This document shows positions 4,014-45,150 of a stretch of 48,167 nt of DNA, piece by piece. The position numbers and the translations under genes were made by a program. Numbering within the stretch: the stretch's first letter is position 1; each line of letters opens with the position of its first letter. This stretch comes from a virus (Duplodnaviria > Heunggongvirae > Uroviricota > Caudoviricetes). Below the pieces are notes generated by a model, which searched no databases, was not told where the DNA came from, and was given only the letters and a program-made list of their open reading frames with translations. Location: IMG/VR virus record IMGVR_UViG_2721755721_000005; one strand, written 5' to 3'.

Positions 4014-4394
4014 TGTTTTTGGTTTTAACTGTTCCGCGTGCGCTTAGCCGCATTCACAGCATCACAAAATTCACTTTAAAAACGGCGGCAGAGCAGTCAC
4101 GGAGTAAAACTGATACCGCCAAACGTCACCAGAAAATTGATAACAGAGGGCGTTGCAGCGGGGTTGTCACTTAAGCGTATGGTCAACCTGACAACTCGGT
4201 GTCCTCAACGGGGAAGGAATAACCCCGCCATACTTACCGCCGCGCCATTTTGCGGGTTGCCACAACCAGAAGCGCACGGTCGAATTAAATTTAACGACAC
4301 CGTACAGTGAGACGAACTTCGCCGTGCGCTTTCGTGTTGTGTGCCTGCTTTTAACCACGTCAGGCGAGGTGGTATCCTTAAAATCACCACAGTT

Positions 4395-7949: not shown

Positions 7950-8321
7950 ATTAAAGAGCATTAGTTCAGATATGAATTGACATTTTCATGGCACAGGGTT
8001 GAGCTAGCGTGGTTGTCCGCTTTGTGCCAGTAACGGACGTTTTAAACATTTGTAATCACTAATCCGCGTAGAAAAGATCTCACCGCATAATCAGGCAAAC
8101 ATGCAGGAACATCTGAGGAGTTTTTTCGAGATACGGACAAGGAAAAGCAGCAGAACCTCGTTGAGGCCCTCTCAGGTGGTGCCGGAAAGAGATGTTATGG
8201 TAAATATCGCAGACATAGAGCATTTGAAGTGATATTTAGCATACTTATGCTCTTATTGTAGATTGGCTTTTACCAAATAAGCTTTTTACTACAATGTATG
8301 AACATAAGCCGATTGATCTTT

Positions 8322-9029
8322 TTAGGCAGCAGTCGCTTGCTCACTTCTGCTATCACCAAACATAGTCTGTGCTGCCATGTCAACATCTCCAGATACTGAA
8401 TTCTCGTATCTTCTAATAGCTTCATCTGGCGTTTCGGTAAAGGTTTTTTCAGCAAAAATAATATCTTGTAGTTCGCATATCTTTATTTTCAACTTTCTTA
8501 GGGTGTCACTATCGTTTTTTCCTGTGATCCTCACACAAGCATTAATACGATTAATTATTATTTCTTGGAATATGTTTTTCTTTTCCTCAATTATTCTTCT
8601 AAAAAGAACTATTGTTTTTTCTTTTCCTATAATATCCTCTTCAAGAGGCGCTTTTGCTTTCTCTATATCTTTCTTTGACGCAAACTCATTAAATGCAAAA
8701 GTGGTTATGTAACCTATTATTATAGGAAGGAATGAATAGGAAGTTGGTACTTTTGTTGTTAGGTAGGTTGATATGGCTCCTATGACTATTAATACTGTTC
8801 TTTTATACCAAGGTACAGAGATTATGAATTCGAAAAAACGTGTTATCGCCACATGCATCTTTTGCAAAAGGCAAAGGATTAAAACTACTATAACAACGAT
8901 AATAAGTATCGCAGCAAAACTTGAAGCGACCTCAGTTACTGATGAATTACTATTTTTTTCAGCAGTATAGCTACTTACAGTAGATGGCGTATTGATTTCT
9001 AATTGTTTGTTTTCAATCTCGGTGCCCAC
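8322..9029 (-). CDS. Uncharacterised membrane protein (gene B of a two-gene accessory operon): three predicted TM helices plus a ~110-aa charged C-terminal domain
   Basis: 235-aa ORF with a GTG start 10 nt after the gene A stop. Hydrophobic segments AAILIIVVIVVLILCLL, TVLIVIGAISTYL and FLPIIIGYITTFAF. Strongly AT-rich by eye. Confidence 0.6.
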   Translation of the reverse strand: MGTEIENKQLEINTPSTVSSYTAEKNSNSSVTEVASSFAAILIIVVIVVLILCLLQKMHVAITRFFEFIISVPWYKRTVLIVIGAISTYLTTKVPTSYSFLPIIIGYITTFAFNEFASKKDIEKAKAPLEEDIIGKEKTIVLFRRIIEEKKNIFQEIIINRINACVRITGKNDSDTLRKLKIKICELQDIIFAEKTFTETPDEAIRRYENSVSGDVDMAAQTMFGDSRSEQATAA

Positions 9030-9038
9030 GCTAATCCC

Positions 9039-9509
9039 TTAATCTTTGGCCATTCCTAATTTTTCAAATAATGTCGGTGCTCCAGCTAAAATTGCGGCTA
9101 GCATTCTTAACGAATCACCAGATAAGTTGAGCATCTTTTCATCAACAGCAATCTCTTCTACTGTGAAAACAATCAATGGTGTTTGTTCTTCTTCAATTAT
9201 TGTCGATTTTATTCCTATTGATTTTCTATTAAAATTATTAGCAATGGACAGTAGCGATTGTTTATCTTTGCCTATTTTCATGGCGTTGGTGTTAAAAGAG
9301 TTCATCAGTCTCATTACTATTATTCTAGATGCTACTCTCTTCTCAAGTATTAAATTGACTTCATTGAATTTAAATGCAACCAATTCAAATCCTTCTTCTC
9401 TCTCTAATTCTTTTATATTATTAAACTCACTTATGCTAGATATAATATCTATAAGGCTTTGATTATTTCTCTTTTGTGTTTCGGTTTTTTTCCTTCTTCC
9501 AGAAGACAT
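9039..9509 (-). CDS. Uncharacterised soluble protein (gene A of the two-gene accessory operon)
   Basis: 156-aa ORF with AAGGA SD about 8 nt upstream of the ATG; basic N-terminus (MSSGRRKKTETQKR); no recognisable motif; AT-rich. Confidence 0.6.
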   Translation of the reverse strand: MSSGRRKKTETQKRNNQSLIDIISSISEFNNIKELEREEGFELVAFKFNEVNLILEKRVASRIIVMRLMNSFNTNAMKIGKDKQSLLSIANNFNRKSIGIKSTIIEEEQTPLIVFTVEEIAVDEKMLNLSGDSLRMLAAILAGAPTLFEKLGMAKD

Positions 9510-9560
9510 CTTTTTTCCTTAATGAATTTATGTGTGGTGATAGTATCCAGCTCTAGATAA

Positions 9561-9590
9561 GAAAAAACACCGCTACCAATGGTGTTTTTT
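9561..9590. terminator. Perfect palindromic hairpin flanked by an A-run and a T-run (bidirectional terminator-like)
   Basis: AAAAAACACC-gctaccaat-GGTGTTTTTT, about 50 bp upstream of the gene A start codon. Confidence 0.4.
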
Positions 9591-10537
9591 CAAGGTTCTT
9601 AGAGCTACCAACTTTTTGAACCGTGGTAACTGGCTTTAACGGAGCGCAGTAACCAAAACTGTCTTTTCAGTGTATCTGTAGTTAGGCCGACACTTCAAGA
9701 ATTCTTTGTACTTTCGTGCGTTTACTCGCTCCATAAAACCAGTTACCAATGGTTACCACCATTGGCGATTTATCGTGCCTGTCAAGATTGGGATCAAGAG
9801 AACAGTTACCTAAATTGCTGTGGTAGTCGGGTGGATCGGGGAGTTCGTGCATATAGCCAAGCTTGGATCGCACCACCTTTAAGGAAACCCGTTGTACGGA
9901 AAGGAATGGGAAAACGCGACCTTACGGCGGTCTGCGACGGGTAAACCTCATGGTGGGAACAGGGCACCGCTTTGCTGAGATGCAGGATAGGGCAGACCCC
10001 CGCAAAATGTCGTCATTTGCGGTGTCTGCCCCGAAAACAGAATATTTTTTCCTGAGCCTGCAGCTGGCTCTAAAAACCGCTATCGCCTCACAAAGCTCGC
10101 TGCTTAACGCCTCACGTTCACCCACTAAACAGCGCACCTGTTAACCGTGAATCACGTACAGATTTATCAATATACTTCGCACGTTTACTGCCGGAAATCC
10201 TCCCTTAATTCCCGCATTTGCCCGAAACCGCCCGCCATTCACCCGCGTGCGCAGGCATTCAGATGCGCAGAAATTAGCATGGGTGTTTTTTCACAATACG
10301 GACGGGGAATAGTGCCGGAAACGGGCCGGACGCGCAAAGATCGCGCTGAGTGGGTGCGGCCAGGTCTTGTTGAGTTTAATGTAATAGTAAATCCAGTCTT
10401 TATGAGTGAAACGTCCACTTCTCGCTCATGGCGGCACTTTAGTGGGCCTGTAAAGTGGATGTTGCCAATCAACGATGAGCAAGGCATTCTAATTGCTTGA
10501 GGTGTTTTCGTATAAAATTTAAACAAAAGGAGCAATT

Positions 10538-11887
10538 ATGTCGAGTCTGAGAGATATGGAAGAGCTTATTGGTGATATCGTGGATGTTGAGCTTAAAGAA
10601 TACATGCGAGAAGCACTAATTTGCTATATGACTGGTGCTCATCGAGCATGCGTAGTGCTTTCGTTCATTGCCATCTTCGAGGACTTATTCAAAAAGTTAG
10701 ACGGGATGGCCACTACGAATAGAGTTGCTAAAGCGATCTTTACAGAAATATCCAAGAAAAGAGATGAACAAAAAGTTTACGAAAATGATTTGCTTAATAA
10801 ATTGAAATCTGAAAAAATAATTACAGAGATTGATGCTGACTTTCTCACTGTGTTAAGAACTCTCAGAAATAAAGCTGCACATCCTTCAGGCCATAAACCG
10901 ACAGCTGAAGAAGCTCGATATGTGTATTCAGAAACTATAAATAGATTTCTTTCAAAGCCAGTTCTTTCAACAACTCAAGTTGCCGACCAAATCCTATCTA
11001 AGCTTACCAATTCATACTTATTCCCAACATCTAATATTCAGGACCATGCTATCGTAGTAAATGAGGGTGTTAAAAATCTTCATCATGATGGTTACTCATA
11101 CCTCCTGAAAAAACTCATAGAGTCATTAGACAATGCCAATGAACAAATAAAACTTAATGCAAAAAGATATCTTTTAGGCCTATCTTTTAAACCACTAAAT
11201 AACGATGTTCTTGAGCAAATAAAAAAGCATTTCTTAGTTGAGTGCAGTTCGGATGAAAGTAAAAGACAATGTTTAATGGAATGTATTTCAACCAATGGTA
11301 ATTTGCTAAAAGGTATGGAGGATATTGTTTACTTAAGATTAAATAAAATGTTTGAGGATACAATTTCAACTACAAAATCCTCCGATCAGCATACCTATTT
11401 AAGGCACCCTGTACAGATTGCAATTAGTGTTCTTGGGTTGGAAAGAGAAATTATTGATAGATGCTTTAGATCTAGCATTGATGATGTTCTTGAAAAATAT
11501 AAACTTAGCCCAGTGCTGATGAAGAATATAAAAGGGCATGAGTGGGCTAGACAGAAAGTCATCCAATCAATTTTTGGGCAGGCCGGATCTACAACTTTCT
11601 CTGAAGCTAACACTTTTGCTCAGAGTGTAAATTCATACGATGGTGACATCTCCAGTTTGATGGACAACATAAATTGCTTCGAACTCATTGTTCATATCTG
11701 TGCTGCAGGCAATTGGGGTTCATTTGGAGCTGAAGGTATGATGAAAGGAAAATTCAATAATATCCCTAAAATTAAAGAAAAGGCTGTTAAAGCTCTGCAG
11801 GATAATATCTCTAATTGCCAAGAAATAATTGCAAGAATAAATCCAGCTCTATGTGAAGCAAAGGATTTTGAAGAAAGATATCTTTGA
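10538..11887 (+). CDS. HEPN-domain protein (Rx4H motif, DUF4145/Apea-like) with a ~300-aa uncharacterised C-terminal region
   Basis: 449-aa ORF with AAAGGAG SD. Motif LRTLRNKAAHP (nt 10864-10881), i.e. R-x4-H, in a predicted helical N-terminal domain. AT-rich; divergent from the two-gene operon. Confidence 0.7.
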   Translation: MSSLRDMEELIGDIVDVELKEYMREALICYMTGAHRACVVLSFIAIFEDLFKKLDGMATTNRVAKAIFTEISKKRDEQKVYENDLLNKLKSEKIITEIDADFLTVLRTLRNKAAHPSGHKPTAEEARYVYSETINRFLSKPVLSTTQVADQILSKLTNSYLFPTSNIQDHAIVVNEGVKNLHHDGYSYLLKKLIESLDNANEQIKLNAKRYLLGLSFKPLNNDVLEQIKKHFLVECSSDESKRQCLMECISTNGNLLKGMEDIVYLRLNKMFEDTISTTKSSDQHTYLRHPVQIAISVLGLEREIIDRCFRSSIDDVLEKYKLSPVLMKNIKGHEWARQKVIQSIFGQAGSTTFSEANTFAQSVNSYDGDISSLMDNINCFELIVHICAAGNWGSFGAEGMMKGKFNNIPKIKEKAVKALQDNISNCQEIIARINPALCEAKDFEERYL

Positions 11888-11929: not shown

Positions 11930-12520
11930 TTATAGGAGTTATTGGGTGGGTTAATATAACGTTTATTCACCATCAATCAACCGCAACCTTAATGGTGTTA
12001 TTTTCAACCGCGAACTTCCGCTTCTCGCTCAAAGCGGACTAAAATGTTGGCTTGCGCCGGACTTTGCGTATTTAAATAAGTGCTGGTGGTGACTGGTTGC
12101 TGTGTTCTATTTCTACAGAACAAAATTACAGAAACTATACCCAATAGTTGTATTGAATCACTGACGAGACAGCCTCATATTTATCAGGACAGGTGTACGT
12201 TCTATACAGGAGGTTGCCGTGCTGGTTCTCAAATGTGCGCTGGCTATTGTGGCTGTAATGGCGATTTATTGTCTTGCCATTATTCTTATGGATCGCCTTT
12301 CTGACTGATTTCATATTGGCGAGGTAACGGGAGTTAAGTAGAATGGCTGCGGGTGCTTGAGGCTGTCTGCCTCGGGCATGAACACCAACGGCAGATAGAG
12401 AAAAGCCCCAGTTAACATTACACGTCCTGCAAGACGCTTAACATTAATCTGAGGCCACATCTATACTTTGCATACGTAGATTAGCCTCTTACCGACCAAA
12501 AGGTCAAAGAGAAGCGGGCT

Positions 12521-12676
12521 ATGAAGCAGCAAAAGGCGATGTTAATCGCCCTGATCGTCATCTGTTTAACCGTCATAGTGACGGCGCTGGTAACGAGGAA
12601 AGACCTCTGCGAGGTACGAATCCGAACCGGCCAGACGGAGGTCGCTGTCTTCACAGCTTACGAACCTGAGGAGTAA
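12521..12676 (+). CDS. hokD: Hok/Gef-family type I toxin (HokD/RelF-type), 51 aa
   Basis: Not in the ORF track (under 60 aa). Translation MKQQKAMLIALIVICLTVIVTALVTRKDLCEVRIRTGQTEVAVFTAYEPEE has the Hok pattern: one TM helix plus the conserved RK.LCE.R...EVA.F.AYE periplasmic tail. Confidence 0.85.
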   Translation: MKQQKAMLIALIVICLTVIVTALVTRKDLCEVRIRTGQTEVAVFTAYEPEE

Positions 12677-44569: not shown

Positions 44570-45150
44570 TGGCATTCAGAATGAGTGAACAAGCACGGAC
44601 CATAAAAATTTATAATCTGCTGGCCGGAACTAATGAATTTATTGGTGAAGGTGACGCATATATTCCGCCTCATACAGGTCTGCCAGCAAACAGTACCGAT
44701 ATTGCACCACCAGATATTCCGGCAGGCTTCGTGGCTGTTTTCAACAGTGATGAGGCATCGTGGCATCTCGTTGAAGACCATCGGGGTAAAACGGTTTATG
44801 ACGTGGCTTCCGGCGACGCGTTATTTATTTCTGAACTCGGTCCGTTACCGGAAAATGTTACCTGGTTGTCGCCGGGAGGGGAATATCAGAAGTGGAACGG
44901 CACAGCCTGGGTGAAGGATACGGAAGCAGAAAAACTGTTCCGGATCCGGGAGGCAGAAGAAACAAAAAACAGCCTGATGCAGGTAGCCAGTGAGCATATT
45001 GCGCCACTTCAGGATGCTGTAGATCTGGAAATCGCAACGGAGGAAGAAATCTCGTTGCTGGAAGCCTGGAAGAAGTATCGGGTGTTGCTGAACCGTGTTA
45101 ATACAACAACTGCACCGGATATTGAATGGCCAGTAGCACCTATAGGGTAA
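44569..45150 (+). CDS. tfa: Tail fibre assembly protein Tfa
   Basis: [43 protein letters not shown]... lambda Tfa-like; ATG overlaps the stf stop. Confidence 0.9.

Follow-up and report, generated by a model that had tools for sequence, protein, structure and literature searches.

Introduction

A ColE1-type replicon is recognized by RNA I, a three-stem-loop antisense RNA some 100 nt long, and by RNA II, to which RNA I is antisense, with its 3′ domain and the RNase H processing site and origin. When cloned, RNA I genes cause incompatibility with plasmids of the ColE1 type. In cer-type Xer sites the core consists of an 11-bp XerC arm, a 6- to 8-bp centre and an 11-bp XerD arm, and accessory sequence of about 200 bp, including an ArgR box, adjoins the XerC arm. 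For Xer-mediated integration, the IMEX elements form the comparison class, and Xer-mediated cointegrates have been reviewed (PMC6764390).

Here, we analyzed positions 9510 to 10537 of a 48,167-nt sequence of a Caudoviricetes virus (IMG/VR record IMGVR_UViG_2721755721_000005); we refer to this whole 48,167-nt stretch as the window. Our comparisons indicate that the region is very probably the non-coding backbone of a small ColE1-family plasmid residing inside a lambdoid prophage. By sequence, the relatives of the captured plasmid are those of the pPA3.0 type (PLSDB rep_cluster_2324), and the structures in the region are ordinary ColE1-family plasmid parts with no new RNA among them. The parts are thus textbook ones; their setting within a prophage is unusual.

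Results

Noncoding Plasmid Backbone in a Lambdoid Prophage

The region had been described from its sequence as GC-richer than its surroundings and devoid of a credible gene, and both statements held. Its GC content is 0.474, whereas the gene blocks on either side have values of 0.331 and 0.353. ORFs of 60 to 117 aa are present, but a Pfam search with them gave no match at E ≤ 1, and the DNA aligns with plasmid non-coding backbone. Specifically, >5,000 PLSDB plasmids, mostly small, match the region, none covering >80% of the query in one place, and in these thousands of small plasmids the aligned DNA is non-coding backbone. In some genomes PGAP annotates a 64-aa hypothetical protein within the RNA II stretch, most likely spuriously.

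The closest free relatives are 1.8- to 3.5-kb plasmids of Enterobacterales. Window positions 8147 to 9878 correspond to 458 to 2187 of the plasmid pPA3.0 with 82% identity, while 10057 to 10148 and 10245 to 10350 correspond to pPA3.0 207 to 298 and 371 to 476; thus, the match is circularly permuted. The permuted homology to free plasmids breaks at an Xer core, and its right-hand limit is the boundary between the XerC arm and the central region.

An Intact RNA I Gene

9559–9661, minus strand: RNA I antisense RNA gene, a full-length match to the Rfam model RF00106 (model positions 1 to 102)
9562–9590, minus strand: RNA I terminator hairpin
9669–9698, minus strand: RNA I promoter, −35 TTGAAG (9698–9693), 18-nt spacer, −10 TACACT (9674–9669)

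The Rfam scan that the sequence-only reading had proposed returned RNAI with a score of 68.4 bits (gathering score 47; E = 1.6e-10), and a permissive scan of the region (E ≤ 10) gave only RNAI above noise. The minimum free-energy fold of the RNA I strand (9556 to 9665, minus) contains three stem-loops (z = −3.0). The RNA I of the window has the length, antisense orientation and three stem-loops of the ColE1 type. The perfect 10-bp palindrome noted earlier, formed by AAAAAACACC at 9562 to 9571 and GGTGTTTTTT at 9581 to 9590, is the RNA I terminator. In an alignment of the window with pPA3.0, Salmonella plasmid p3, a 1.8-kb E. coli plasmid and ColE1, the hexamers of the RNA I promoter are invariant; they match 8 of 12 consensus positions, and a simple promoter scan did not flag them. 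Gene, promoter and terminator of RNA I are all intact in the window.

A Truncated RNA II and a Missing Origin

9519–9546, plus strand: RNA II promoter, −35 TTAATG (9519–9524), 16-nt spacer, −10 TAGTAT (9541–9546)
9555–9963, plus strand: RNA II pre-primer, 5′ about 410 nt only, by homology to plasmid RNA II
9963/9964, no strand: truncation junction; two plasmid alignments abut at 9963

The −35 element of the RNA II promoter reads TTAATG in the window and TTGATG in all free plasmids and other copies, a G-to-A change by which, judged from the hexamer, it would be weakened. Downstream, window positions 9584 to 9963 (380 nt) are 80% identical to Salmonella plasmid p3 (NZ_CP090544.1), and 9562 to 9878 are 71% identical to ColE1 over 325 nt; the identity of the RNA II region to pPA3.0 is 82%. 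A palindrome that had been placed at about 9870, CCAAGCTTGG, lies at 9857 to 9866 and is a conserved RNA II segment. An RNA II antisense to RNA I is therefore present, but only as its 5′ ∼410 nt (75% of RNA II).

At the position equivalent to 9963/9964, free plasmids carry 511 to 850 bp, with or without vbhA. The gap is 850 bp relative to NZ_CP090544.1, and positions 303 to 813 of the 1.8-kb plasmid NZ_CP040073.1 have no counterpart anywhere in the window. In the cargo plasmids L031/L032, RNA II runs from the 9963 equivalent directly into the origin segment. At the junction RNA II lacks its final ∼135 nt, and both the origin (cctatggaaaac) and a stretch resembling a priming site are gone; CCTATGGAAAA occurs nowhere in the window. 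Because the RNA II 3′ domain and the RNase H processing site/origin are missing, no ColE1 origin activity is predicted. We infer that the element cannot prime Pol I-dependent ColE1 replication and is a fossil replicon, not a second origin of the prophage.

A Hairpin and a Backbone Block Common to Small Plasmids

9990–10031, plus strand: long hairpin of a sublineage of small ColE1-type plasmids (about 40 PLSDB plasmids)
10057–10150, plus strand: block of conserved plasmid backbone separating the hairpin from the cer-like site, by plasmid identity

The nested hairpin reported earlier was found as described, with GGGCAGAC at 9990, CCGCAAAATG at 10000, CATTTGCGG at 10014 and GTCTGCCC at 10024 to 10031. 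The segment 9975 to 10060 folds with −30 kcal/mol (z = −4.07), and none of 200 shuffled sequences folded as well. Covariation, suggested earlier as a check, is present: among the four variants compared, 4 of the 17 pairs show compensatory double changes. The hairpin is absent from pPA3.0, and the related circular contig L027 also lacks a match to that stretch. Window positions 9976 to 10353 are 72% identical to Salmonella plasmid p3. The adjoining block is 80% identical to pPA3.0 207 to 298, 85 to 87% identical to about 36 small plasmids, and 96% identical to copies in Yersinia over the covered part. A free plasmid with the exact mosaic of cargo genes plus the backbone with the 9990 hairpin was not found.

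Two cer-Like Xer Sites

8047–8177, plus strand: left cer-like accessory sequence, divergent type (alignments; about 75% identity to Pantoea megaplasmid sites)
8178–8205, plus strand: left Xer core GGTGCCGGAAA-GAGATG-TTATGGTAAAT; XerD arm identical to ColE1 cer at 11/11 positions
10151–10352, plus strand: right cer-like accessory sequence, aligned with ColE1 cer, pPA3.0 and two other plasmids
10353–10380, plus strand: right Xer-like core GGTGCGGCCAG-GTCTTG-TTGAGTTTAAT; XerC arm plasmid-like, 10/11 to pPA3.0

The cores have the cer-type layout of two 11-bp arms around a short centre. In the right core, the XerD arm is degenerate (7/11 to cer), and 27 of the 28 bases of this core are identical in the Yersinia copies. 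The right accessory sequence is 72 to 74% identical to plasmids. A BLAST search of ColE1 cer against the region gave no alignment, and the relationship is visible only by guided multiple alignment. In that alignment TGCGCAGGCATTCAGATGCGCA (10248 to 10269) pairs with the TGCATAGGTATTCA stretch of ColE1 cer, which we take to be the ArgR box, and TGCGCAGGCATTCA of the right accessory sequence, aligned with the same ColE1 stretch, is a candidate ARG-box-like element. The TGCGCA pair of the earlier description, at 10248 and 10264, belongs to this ARG-box-like part of the cer-like site.

A Xer-type crossover is suggested by the direct repetition of the two cer-like sites and by the circularly permuted match to free plasmids. 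Such a crossover, between two cer-like sites, would have linked the plasmid with other DNA, either before a phage captured it or in the course of capture; we regard this step as quite possible, if somewhat short of likely. The left XerC arm differs among integrated copies, so its difference from plasmids may be decay and not a crossover scar. No unoccupied partner site with halves matching the outer halves of both hybrid sites was found: a chimeric 800-bp query gave no junction-spanning match in 5,426 E. coli genomes, exact patterns of the unoccupied site were not present in IMG/VR or the GTDB representative genomes, scanning metagenomes yielded nothing beyond two copies of the same prophage, and a reconstructed 189-bp site matched nothing spanning the junction in PLSDB. 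Nor did the left accessory sequence ever occur without the cassette among the 5,426 E. coli genomes. Strain 19SZHZ803Rt was considered as a case lacking the right half; it has an IS1-associated deletion and is uninformative.

Cargo Genes and the Neighboring Defense Module

8016–8039, no strand: hairpin GTCCGCTTTGTGCCAGTAACGGAC at the left end of the cassette, also in related prophages with other cargo
8322–9029, minus strand: cargo gene 2, an ORF of 235 aa with an N-terminal hydrophobic segment
9039–9509, minus strand: cargo gene 1, an ORF of 156 aa immediately following RNA I in the same orientation
10381–10429, plus strand: cassette tail, delimited against the Yersinia copies and the DUF4145 module copy in the vat island
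10411–10537, plus strand: upstream region of the DUF4145/PD-T7-3 (DARNA)-like gene, not plasmid-derived

The plasmid-derived cassette extends beyond the analyzed region, spanning ∼2.4 kb from about 8015 to 10429, and occupies the accessory position of a lambdoid prophage between the replication genes and hok/sok. In a sister prophage (strain H6) the same slot holds retron Ec67, and the left-end sequence is common to that retron-bearing prophage up to about 8046. The left-end hairpin is retained wholly or partly in L019 and in the Cronobacter and Yersinia copies. Defined transposon-like cassette ends were considered and rejected, the left ends being ragged among copies.

Cargo gene 2 is 86% identical in DNA to pPA3.0, and its 235-aa product belongs to no Pfam, PADLOC, PHROGs or NCBIfam family. 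The family of the cargo gene 1 protein comprises only 39 clusters, and among the genome contigs searched for related loci with the 156-aa protein none was found. This protein is predicted to have a YbjN/type III secretion chaperone-like fold (AlphaFold pLDDT 86.6; best Foldseek match YbjN 6vu7, E = 1.5e-4, TM about 0.45). In the cassette scenario weighed in the Discussion, the cargo would be a YbjN/chaperone-like protein plus a small membrane protein. We also considered the cargo as a replication protein that makes the origin dispensable; this idea was discarded, given the missing family matches and the YbjN/chaperone-like fold of the 156-aa protein.

To the right, the last ∼19 bp of the cassette tail (10411 to 10429, GTCCACTTCTCGCTCATGG) are common to the start of the adjoining defense-gene module. 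The gene of this module (10538 to 11887) encodes a HEPN DUF4145 protein matching PADLOC PD-T7-3 (E = 4.2e-15). The module is 99.4% identical to a copy in a different island, the vat island, where it stands without cassette DNA.

Distribution and Decay of Integrated Copies

The identical arrangement is present in 26 complete E. coli chromosomes, two IMG/VR contigs and two metagenome contigs. Every full-length E. coli match (26/26) lies in a chromosome, and the origin is retained in each free cargo plasmid found. Two Yersinia prophages have the same junction, are origin-less and show about 90% identity, and a Cronobacter prophage holds a shorter remnant. The divergence between cassette copies is about 10%. 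In contigs L019 and L020 the cassette ends at 9964 with a different flank, so a single simple deletion is insufficient as an explanation. Contig L018, considered as a 2.8-kb plasmid, proved to be a fragment of the same prophage.

The RNA I promoter is kept or improved in all integrated copies (−35 TTGAAA in Yersinia and Cronobacter, −10 TACAAT in Cronobacter), and the RNA II promoter has changes at key positions in three of four integrated lineages. Rfam RNA I scores are 78 to 81 bits in free plasmids, compared to 71 to 72, 68, 49 and below threshold in integrated copies. The Yersinia and Cronobacter substitutions in RNA I break stems and are not compensatory, with scores of 48.8 and below threshold. 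The E. coli and Yersinia copies are 95% identical in RNA I, versus 85 to 89% at third codon positions (binomial P about 0.006); thus, RNA I itself could still be constrained rather than being a mere leader.

Among deposited phage genomes, none holds this plasmid. The ColE1-type matches in them are of about 70% identity, in short, engineered or unannotated records, and are most likely vector-derived or unrelated. A literature search returned no paper mentioning pPA3.0 and none describing a ColE1 replicon inside a prophage.

Discussion

The sequence-only reading had offered a structured RNA component or a degraded remnant, and each suggestion was borne out in part. A real structured RNA gene exists: it encodes RNA I, neither an antitoxin nor a retron msr/msd nor a novel regulatory RNA. 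A remnant exists as well, consisting of a truncated plasmid replicon plus a cer-like site, and it does not derive from a protein gene.

The RNA I promoter is probably the component that still functions and, given its conservation, the one that now drives the cargo genes. RNA I would serve as leader sequence, its terminator would attenuate, and transcription reading through the terminator would keep both cargo genes transcribed at a low constitutive level, as in free plasmids; both RNA I expression and read-through into the cargo are deduced from the sequence arrangement. A broader scenario, which we put forward tentatively and hold to be possible rather than likely, is that the cassette lost its origin long ago, passes between temperate phages of Escherichia, Yersinia and Cronobacter and lands in defense hot spots. 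The RNA I promoter, leader and terminator would have been domesticated for a two-gene cargo constituting an undescribed phage-defense or exclusion system, and Xer recombination at cer-like sites would feed plasmid genes into phages.

RNA I might instead have been retained to act in trans, pairing with RNA II from incoming plasmids of identical loop sequence and lowering their copy number or excluding them, which would make it an incompatibility determinant of the prophage. The incompatibility exerted by cloned RNA I genes is familiar plasmid biology, and the intact gene, promoter and terminator in the window, as well as the 95% conservation between E. coli and Yersinia relative to third codon positions, are what such a role would lead one to expect. 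We nevertheless judge it unlikely: the substitutions in Yersinia and Cronobacter break the stems and bring the Rfam scores to 48.8 and below threshold, the RNA I of a multicopy plasmid would outnumber that of a single chromosomal copy, and no PLSDB plasmid has identical RNA I loops. Moreover, the lysogen EC_J_9 also harbors a 5.1-kb plasmid that we take to be ColE1-type from its match to the query, which covered only the hairpin segment (92.7%). Far less probable is a working plasmid-type origin, by which the prophage or an excised cassette would replicate as a phage-plasmid or satellite-like plasmid. In its favor, the window retains RNA I together with 75% of RNA II, and recombination between the directly repeated Xer-like cores might in principle release a 2.2-kb circle, but the RNA II 3′ domain, origin and priming-site-like stretch are absent from the whole window, the RNA II −35 appears weakened and the right XerD arm is degenerate. 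The complete plasmid replication module of a phage-plasmid is not found in this prophage; its origin is deleted, and the integrated copies found are all chromosomal, while the free cargo plasmids all keep the origin.

The statistically unusual strength of the hairpins and the location in a defense hot spot, with a retron in the same slot of strain H6 and a PD-T7-3-like gene next door, might point to a new structured regulatory RNA (a type III antitoxin, retron ncRNA or similar) serving a flanking accessory locus. We consider this very improbable, since homology to plasmid backbone accounts for every structure and the Rfam scan at E ≤ 10 gave only RNAI above noise. There is no adjoining reverse transcriptase or toxin gene and no matching retron or antitoxin RNA family, the neighbors being YbjN-like and HEPN DUF4145 proteins, and the DUF4145 module exists elsewhere without cassette DNA. 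Scarcely credible at all is a decayed protein-coding gene or an assembly or vector artifact. The ORFs of up to 117 aa and the PGAP call in some genomes would speak for the former, but these ORFs have no Pfam matches; ColE1-type origins in phage records are usually cloning-vector contamination, but this arrangement is shared by 26 independent complete genomes and other genera, and identity to ColE1 of only 71% argues against a laboratory vector.

With a captured plasmid backbone, our preferred identification, a 1-kb stretch that 26 complete E. coli genomes leave blank or assign a spurious ORF can be annotated feature by feature, as RNA I, the truncated RNA II, the cer-like site and a defense-gene promoter region. 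It would document, clearly and in a datable manner, the movement of genes out of a small multicopy plasmid into temperate phages. Among the integrated copies, the RNA I promoter and the cargo genes were retained; the origin, the RNA II promoter and the RNA I structure decayed or were lost. Chromosomal RNAI matches should not be taken for plasmid contamination or working origins. Knowledge of ColE1 replication and Xer recombination is unchanged by the cassette.

Comparison with Known Systems

With ColE1/pMB1-type replicons the element shares RNA I with its three stem-loops, promoter and terminator, and an antisense RNA II that is homologous over about 320 to 410 nt and has conserved motifs; it differs in lacking the last ∼135 nt of RNA II, the origin, the priming-site-like stretch and a rop gene, in its mutated RNA II −35 and in its chromosomal location within a prophage. 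Pantoea agglomerans pPA3.0 (NZ_EU092237.1) and the circular contigs L027 and L031/L032 have the same two cargo genes, the same RNA I-to-cargo arrangement and a cer-like site adjoining the 235-aa gene, with 82 to 83% DNA identity over 1.7 kb. These, however, are free circles with complete RNA II and origin and a single cer-like site, and pPA3.0 carries vbhA.

As in ColE1 cer, a XerC arm, a 6-bp centre and a XerD arm (identical in the left site) are accompanied on the XerC side by accessory-like sequence with a candidate ARG-box-like stretch at a comparable distance, whereas the right XerD arm and left XerC arm of the window are degenerate. Unlike plasmid Xer multimer-resolution sites, the two putative sites of the window are direct repeats on one molecule. 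Xer cointegrates and IMEX elements likewise show circularly permuted plasmid homology with a break at an Xer core; here, the partner would be a cer-like site with accessory sequences instead of a chromosomal dif, no unoccupied site was found and the cassette ends are ragged among copies. Finally, like the moron and defense cassettes of lambdoid prophage hot spots, the cassette is AT-rich, has its own promoter, sits in the retron Ec67 slot and has a PD-T7-3-like neighbor. It differs from them in having a promoter and leader derived from the copy-control RNA gene of a plasmid, and in carrying along a large dead piece of the replicon.

The Hairpin-Rich Region Is a Fossil ColE1-Type Replicon

All of the sequence features that the sequence-only reading had reported at 9510–10537 were located in the window: a palindrome with 10-bp arms (AAAAAACACC at 9562–9571 and GGTGTTTTTT at 9581–9590), a nested hairpin at 9990–10031 (outer GGGCAGAC...GTCTGCCC, inner CCGCAAAATG...CATTTGCGG), the palindrome CCAAGCTTGG at 9857–9866, and TGCGCA at 10248 and 10264. 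The region is richer in GC than the flanking gene blocks (0.474 versus 0.331 and 0.353), and the fold of 9975–10060 (z = −4.07) beats 200 of 200 shuffles. The ORFs present, of 60 to 117 aa, have no Pfam match at E ≤ 1, which bears out the claim that the region is non-coding. In some genomes, PGAP annotates a 64-aa hypothetical protein (WP_124062061.1) at window 9682–9876 (−), equivalent to 12173–12364 of comparison locus L001, within the RNA II remnant, and ColE1 carries a similar annotated "replication initiation protein" over its RNA II; both have the look of ORFs called spuriously on replicon DNA that does not code for protein.

We ran Rfam over the entire window at gathering thresholds, with a second, permissive scan of 9300–10700. 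This check, proposed in the sequence-only reading, returned a known RNA. RNAI (RF00106), which controls copy number in ColE1-type plasmids as an antisense RNA, matched 9559–9661 (−) over the full model with 68.4 bits against a threshold of 47, and the permissive scan revealed no other RNA family above noise in 9300–10700. On the minus strand, RNA I folds into the expected three stem-loops, the third of which, the terminator, is the "perfect palindrome with A/T flanks" described earlier; CCAAGCTTGG is the conserved RNA II segment CCCAGCTTGG. The RNA I promoter hexamers do not vary among the window, pPA3.0 (a Pantoea agglomerans plasmid), two other small plasmids, and ColE1, while the RNA II −35 is TTAATG in the window versus TTGATG in every free plasmid.

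Promoters and left cer-like site of the cassette
8047–8177, accessory-like sequence of the left cer-like site
8178–8205, core of the left cer-like site
9541–9546, −10 of the RNA II promoter (TAGTAT), aligned with the pPA3.0 promoter
9698–9669 (−), RNA I promoter (TTGAAG, 18-nt spacer, TACACT)

More than 5,000 plasmid records match the region, most of them for small Enterobacterales plasmids, mobilizable or not, and in none of them does a single location cover 80% of it. ColE1 is 71% identical to window 9562–9878, and the Salmonella plasmid NZ_CP090544.1 is 80% identical over 9584–9963 and 72% over 9976–10353. pPA3.0 (2,901 bp) shows 82% identity to window 8147–9878, including both minus-strand genes, and is circularly permuted relative to the window, opening at the plasmid's cer-like core. 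Free circular plasmids with the cargo genes and a complete RNA II and origin are pPA3.0 and the contigs L027 (circular by a 30-nt terminal overlap) and L031/L032. We conclude that the region is a fossil ColE1-type replicon, real and accounted for by known biology. Both proposals of the sequence-only reading were right in part: an RNA gene is present, but a new RNA class was rejected, and the DNA is a degraded remnant, but of a replicon and not of a decayed gene.

The Origin Is Missing from the Window Copy

Two alignments with the 1.8-kb Escherichia coli plasmid NZ_CP040073.1 meet exactly at window 9963, and nothing in the 48-kb window corresponds to plasmid positions 303–813. This segment comprises the final ~135 nt of RNA II, the origin (cctatggaaaac), and a gctcgccgcag... 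stretch that we take, from pBR322, to be the primosome assembly site. Compared with NZ_CP090544.1, the window lacks 850 bp, vbhA included. In L031 and L032, plasmid contigs with the same cargo genes, RNA II passes from the 9963 equivalent directly into the origin segment. Initiation in ColE1 requires a persistent hybrid of RNA II at the origin, cut by RNase H to give the Pol I primer. Thus, the window copy would be unable to initiate replication, and a working origin was rejected in favor of the fossil.

Beyond the junction, window 9964–10150 matches only about 40 PLSDB plasmids, at 80–87%. The 9990–10031 hairpin is absent from pPA3.0. A covariation check, also proposed earlier, came out in its favor: among four sequence variants, 4 of its 17 pairs show compensatory double changes, and one G–U pair would be A–C on the opposite strand. 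On this evidence the hairpin is real and probably folds on the plus strand, the one that leading-strand synthesis displaces in the plasmids. As to its role, our guesses are a lagging-strand priming signal or a terminator protecting the cer-like site from RNA II read-through. Window 10151–10380 aligns with ColE1 cer and counterparts from three other plasmids, the TGCGCA...TGCGCA repeat being aligned to the TGCATAGGTATTCA stretch of ColE1 cer; the core is GGTGCGGCCAG-GTCTTG-TTGAGTTTAAT. The last 127 bp of the region (10411–10537) belong to the adjacent DUF4145 gene module and are 99.4% identical in an unrelated island.

Origin-Less Copies Occur in Other Prophages

At ≥99.8% identity, the window's prophage recurs in 26 of the 5,426 complete E. 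coli genomes searched; two contigs from IMG/VR and two from metagenomes also carry it. In some copies, IS3 has inserted between hokD and the DUF4145 gene (L001, 14889–16051), and in one, an IS1-associated deletion (L007, 7048–7745) has taken out the DUF4145 gene along with the greater part of the cassette. In prophages of Yersinia enterocolitica and Y. intermedia, an origin-less copy homologous to window 10429–8034 (88–91%) sits not in this slot but between antiterminator Q and the lysis genes, with a 9963/9964 junction identical to the window's. A Cronobacter sakazakii prophage carries window 9799–8019 at 86%, inverted with respect to the replication genes. Two Logan contigs of unknown host (L019/L020; SRR28957480, SRR17222370) carry window 9964–8015 at 95%, ending ≤1–2 nt from the same junction before unrelated DNA, with a tRNA-Asn gene about 165 bp away and an IS3-family element on the other side. 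The shared junction and the distribution of origin-less copies show that the truncation is old and that the cassette has moved among prophages.

The RNA I End Is Retained after Capture

RNAI scores of free and integrated copies (Rfam)
Free plasmids, 78–81 bits
Unknown-host copies (L019/L020), 71–72 bits
Window, 68.4 bits
Yersinia, 48.8 bits
Cronobacter, below the threshold of 47

The Yersinia RNA I substitutions break stems and do not compensate. The RNA II promoter has key-position changes in three of the four integrated lineages (−35 TTG to TTA in the window; TAGTAT to TCGTAT in Yersinia and Cronobacter). The RNA I promoter in integrated copies is unchanged or nearer consensus, gaining a −35 TTGAAA in Yersinia and Cronobacter and a −10 TACAAT in Cronobacter. 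The cargo genes are 92–99% identical at codon positions 1 and 2 and 79–94% at position 3, a pattern of purifying selection. In all copies, integrated or free, about 50 nt separate the RNA I terminator from the start of the 156-aa gene, which follows it on that strand, and no good candidate for a separate promoter is visible between the two. Together, the retained promoter, this placement, and the lack of a separate promoter suggest that read-through from the RNA I promoter would express the cargo, which may explain the survival of the fossil's RNA I end. One observation points the opposite way: between the E. coli and Yersinia copies, the identity of RNA I (95%) exceeds that of third codon positions (85–89%; P about 0.006). 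RNA I may therefore be under some constraint itself, for example by serving as a leader or attenuator or by acting in trans as an incompatibility RNA.

The Cassette Lies in a Defence Hot Spot

The prophage adjoins rspB, and its backbone picks up again near 12011. Gathering-score matches elsewhere to DicF sRNA, sok antitoxin RNA with an adjacent hokD ORF, and IS009 RNA (4083–4134 (−), 12351–12526 (+), 12521–12676 (+), and 44912–45110 (+)) are typical of a Qin-like lambdoid prophage at this locus. The corresponding slot of a sister prophage, in E. coli H6, is occupied by retron Ec67, whose Ec67-family reverse transcriptase lies between a DUF977 gene and hokD (NZ_CP010170.1, 4091–5926), indicating a swap point for defence cargo. 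The DUF4145 protein (10538–11887, +) matches PADLOC PD-T7-3 (E = 4.2e-15) and carries the HEPN motif RNKAAH (R-x4-H); PD-T7-3 has been renamed DARNA, an ssDNA-activated HEPN tRNase (preprint 10.64898/2026.02.22.705581). From window 10411 on, its module is 99.4% identical in a vat-adjoining island of three other E. coli genomes. The region thus has a defence gene on one side and a plasmid cargo operon on the other, within a defence hot spot.

The cargo pair (8322–9509, −) has no match in Pfam, PADLOC, PHROGs, or NCBIfam. Of the two proteins, the one of 156 aa is confidently predicted to adopt a YbjN/type III secretion chaperone-like fold (pLDDT 86.6, Foldseek E = 1.5e-4), and its family comprises 39 clusters, in Enterobacterales only; the 235-aa protein has a hydrophobic segment at its N terminus. 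The occurrence of the pair solely in small plasmids and prophage accessory slots (Escherichia, Yersinia, Cronobacter) makes it a candidate for a new system of defence or exclusion.

Route of Entry

The plasmid may have entered by a Xer-type crossover between two cer-like sites, a tentative step with somewhat less than an even chance of being right. Consistent with it are the circular permutation of the plasmid homology, the direct repeat of the two sites, and the end of right-hand plasmid homology at the boundary of the XerC arm and the center. The left core reads GGTGCCGGAAA-GAGATG-TTATGGTAAAT and has the same XerD arm as ColE1 cer. Plasmid evolution offers documented cases of Xer-mediated cointegrates (PMC6764390). 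Against such a crossover, the left XerC arm varies among copies, the cassette ends are ragged, and short sequences are common to module borders, such as GTCC[A/G]CTT...TCGCTCAT. Module exchange at short conserved boundary sequences, as in lambdoid phages, fits at least as well, given these recurring sequences, one of which is the 19-bp overlap (10411–10429) common to the cassette and the DUF4145 module. It also speaks against a crossover that no unoccupied integration site was found among the 5,426 E. coli genomes, IMG/VR, GTDB representatives, metagenome contigs, and PLSDB.

The border sequences, GTCC[A/G]CTT...TCGCTCAT(GG) and the hairpin GTCCGCTTTGTGCCAGNNNCGGAC, recur at window 10411–10429, 8016–8046, and 7983–7996 and in the flanks of comparison loci L024, L025, and L022, and TTCGCTCAT also occurs in the Yersinia and Cronobacter copies, there in the opposite flank. 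They may be module-exchange boundaries or recombinase sites.

The fossil is unusual for a ColE1-type replicon in two respects: it is located in prophages, across three genera, and its RNA I promoter has apparently been put to new use, serving a two-gene cargo that is uncharacterised.
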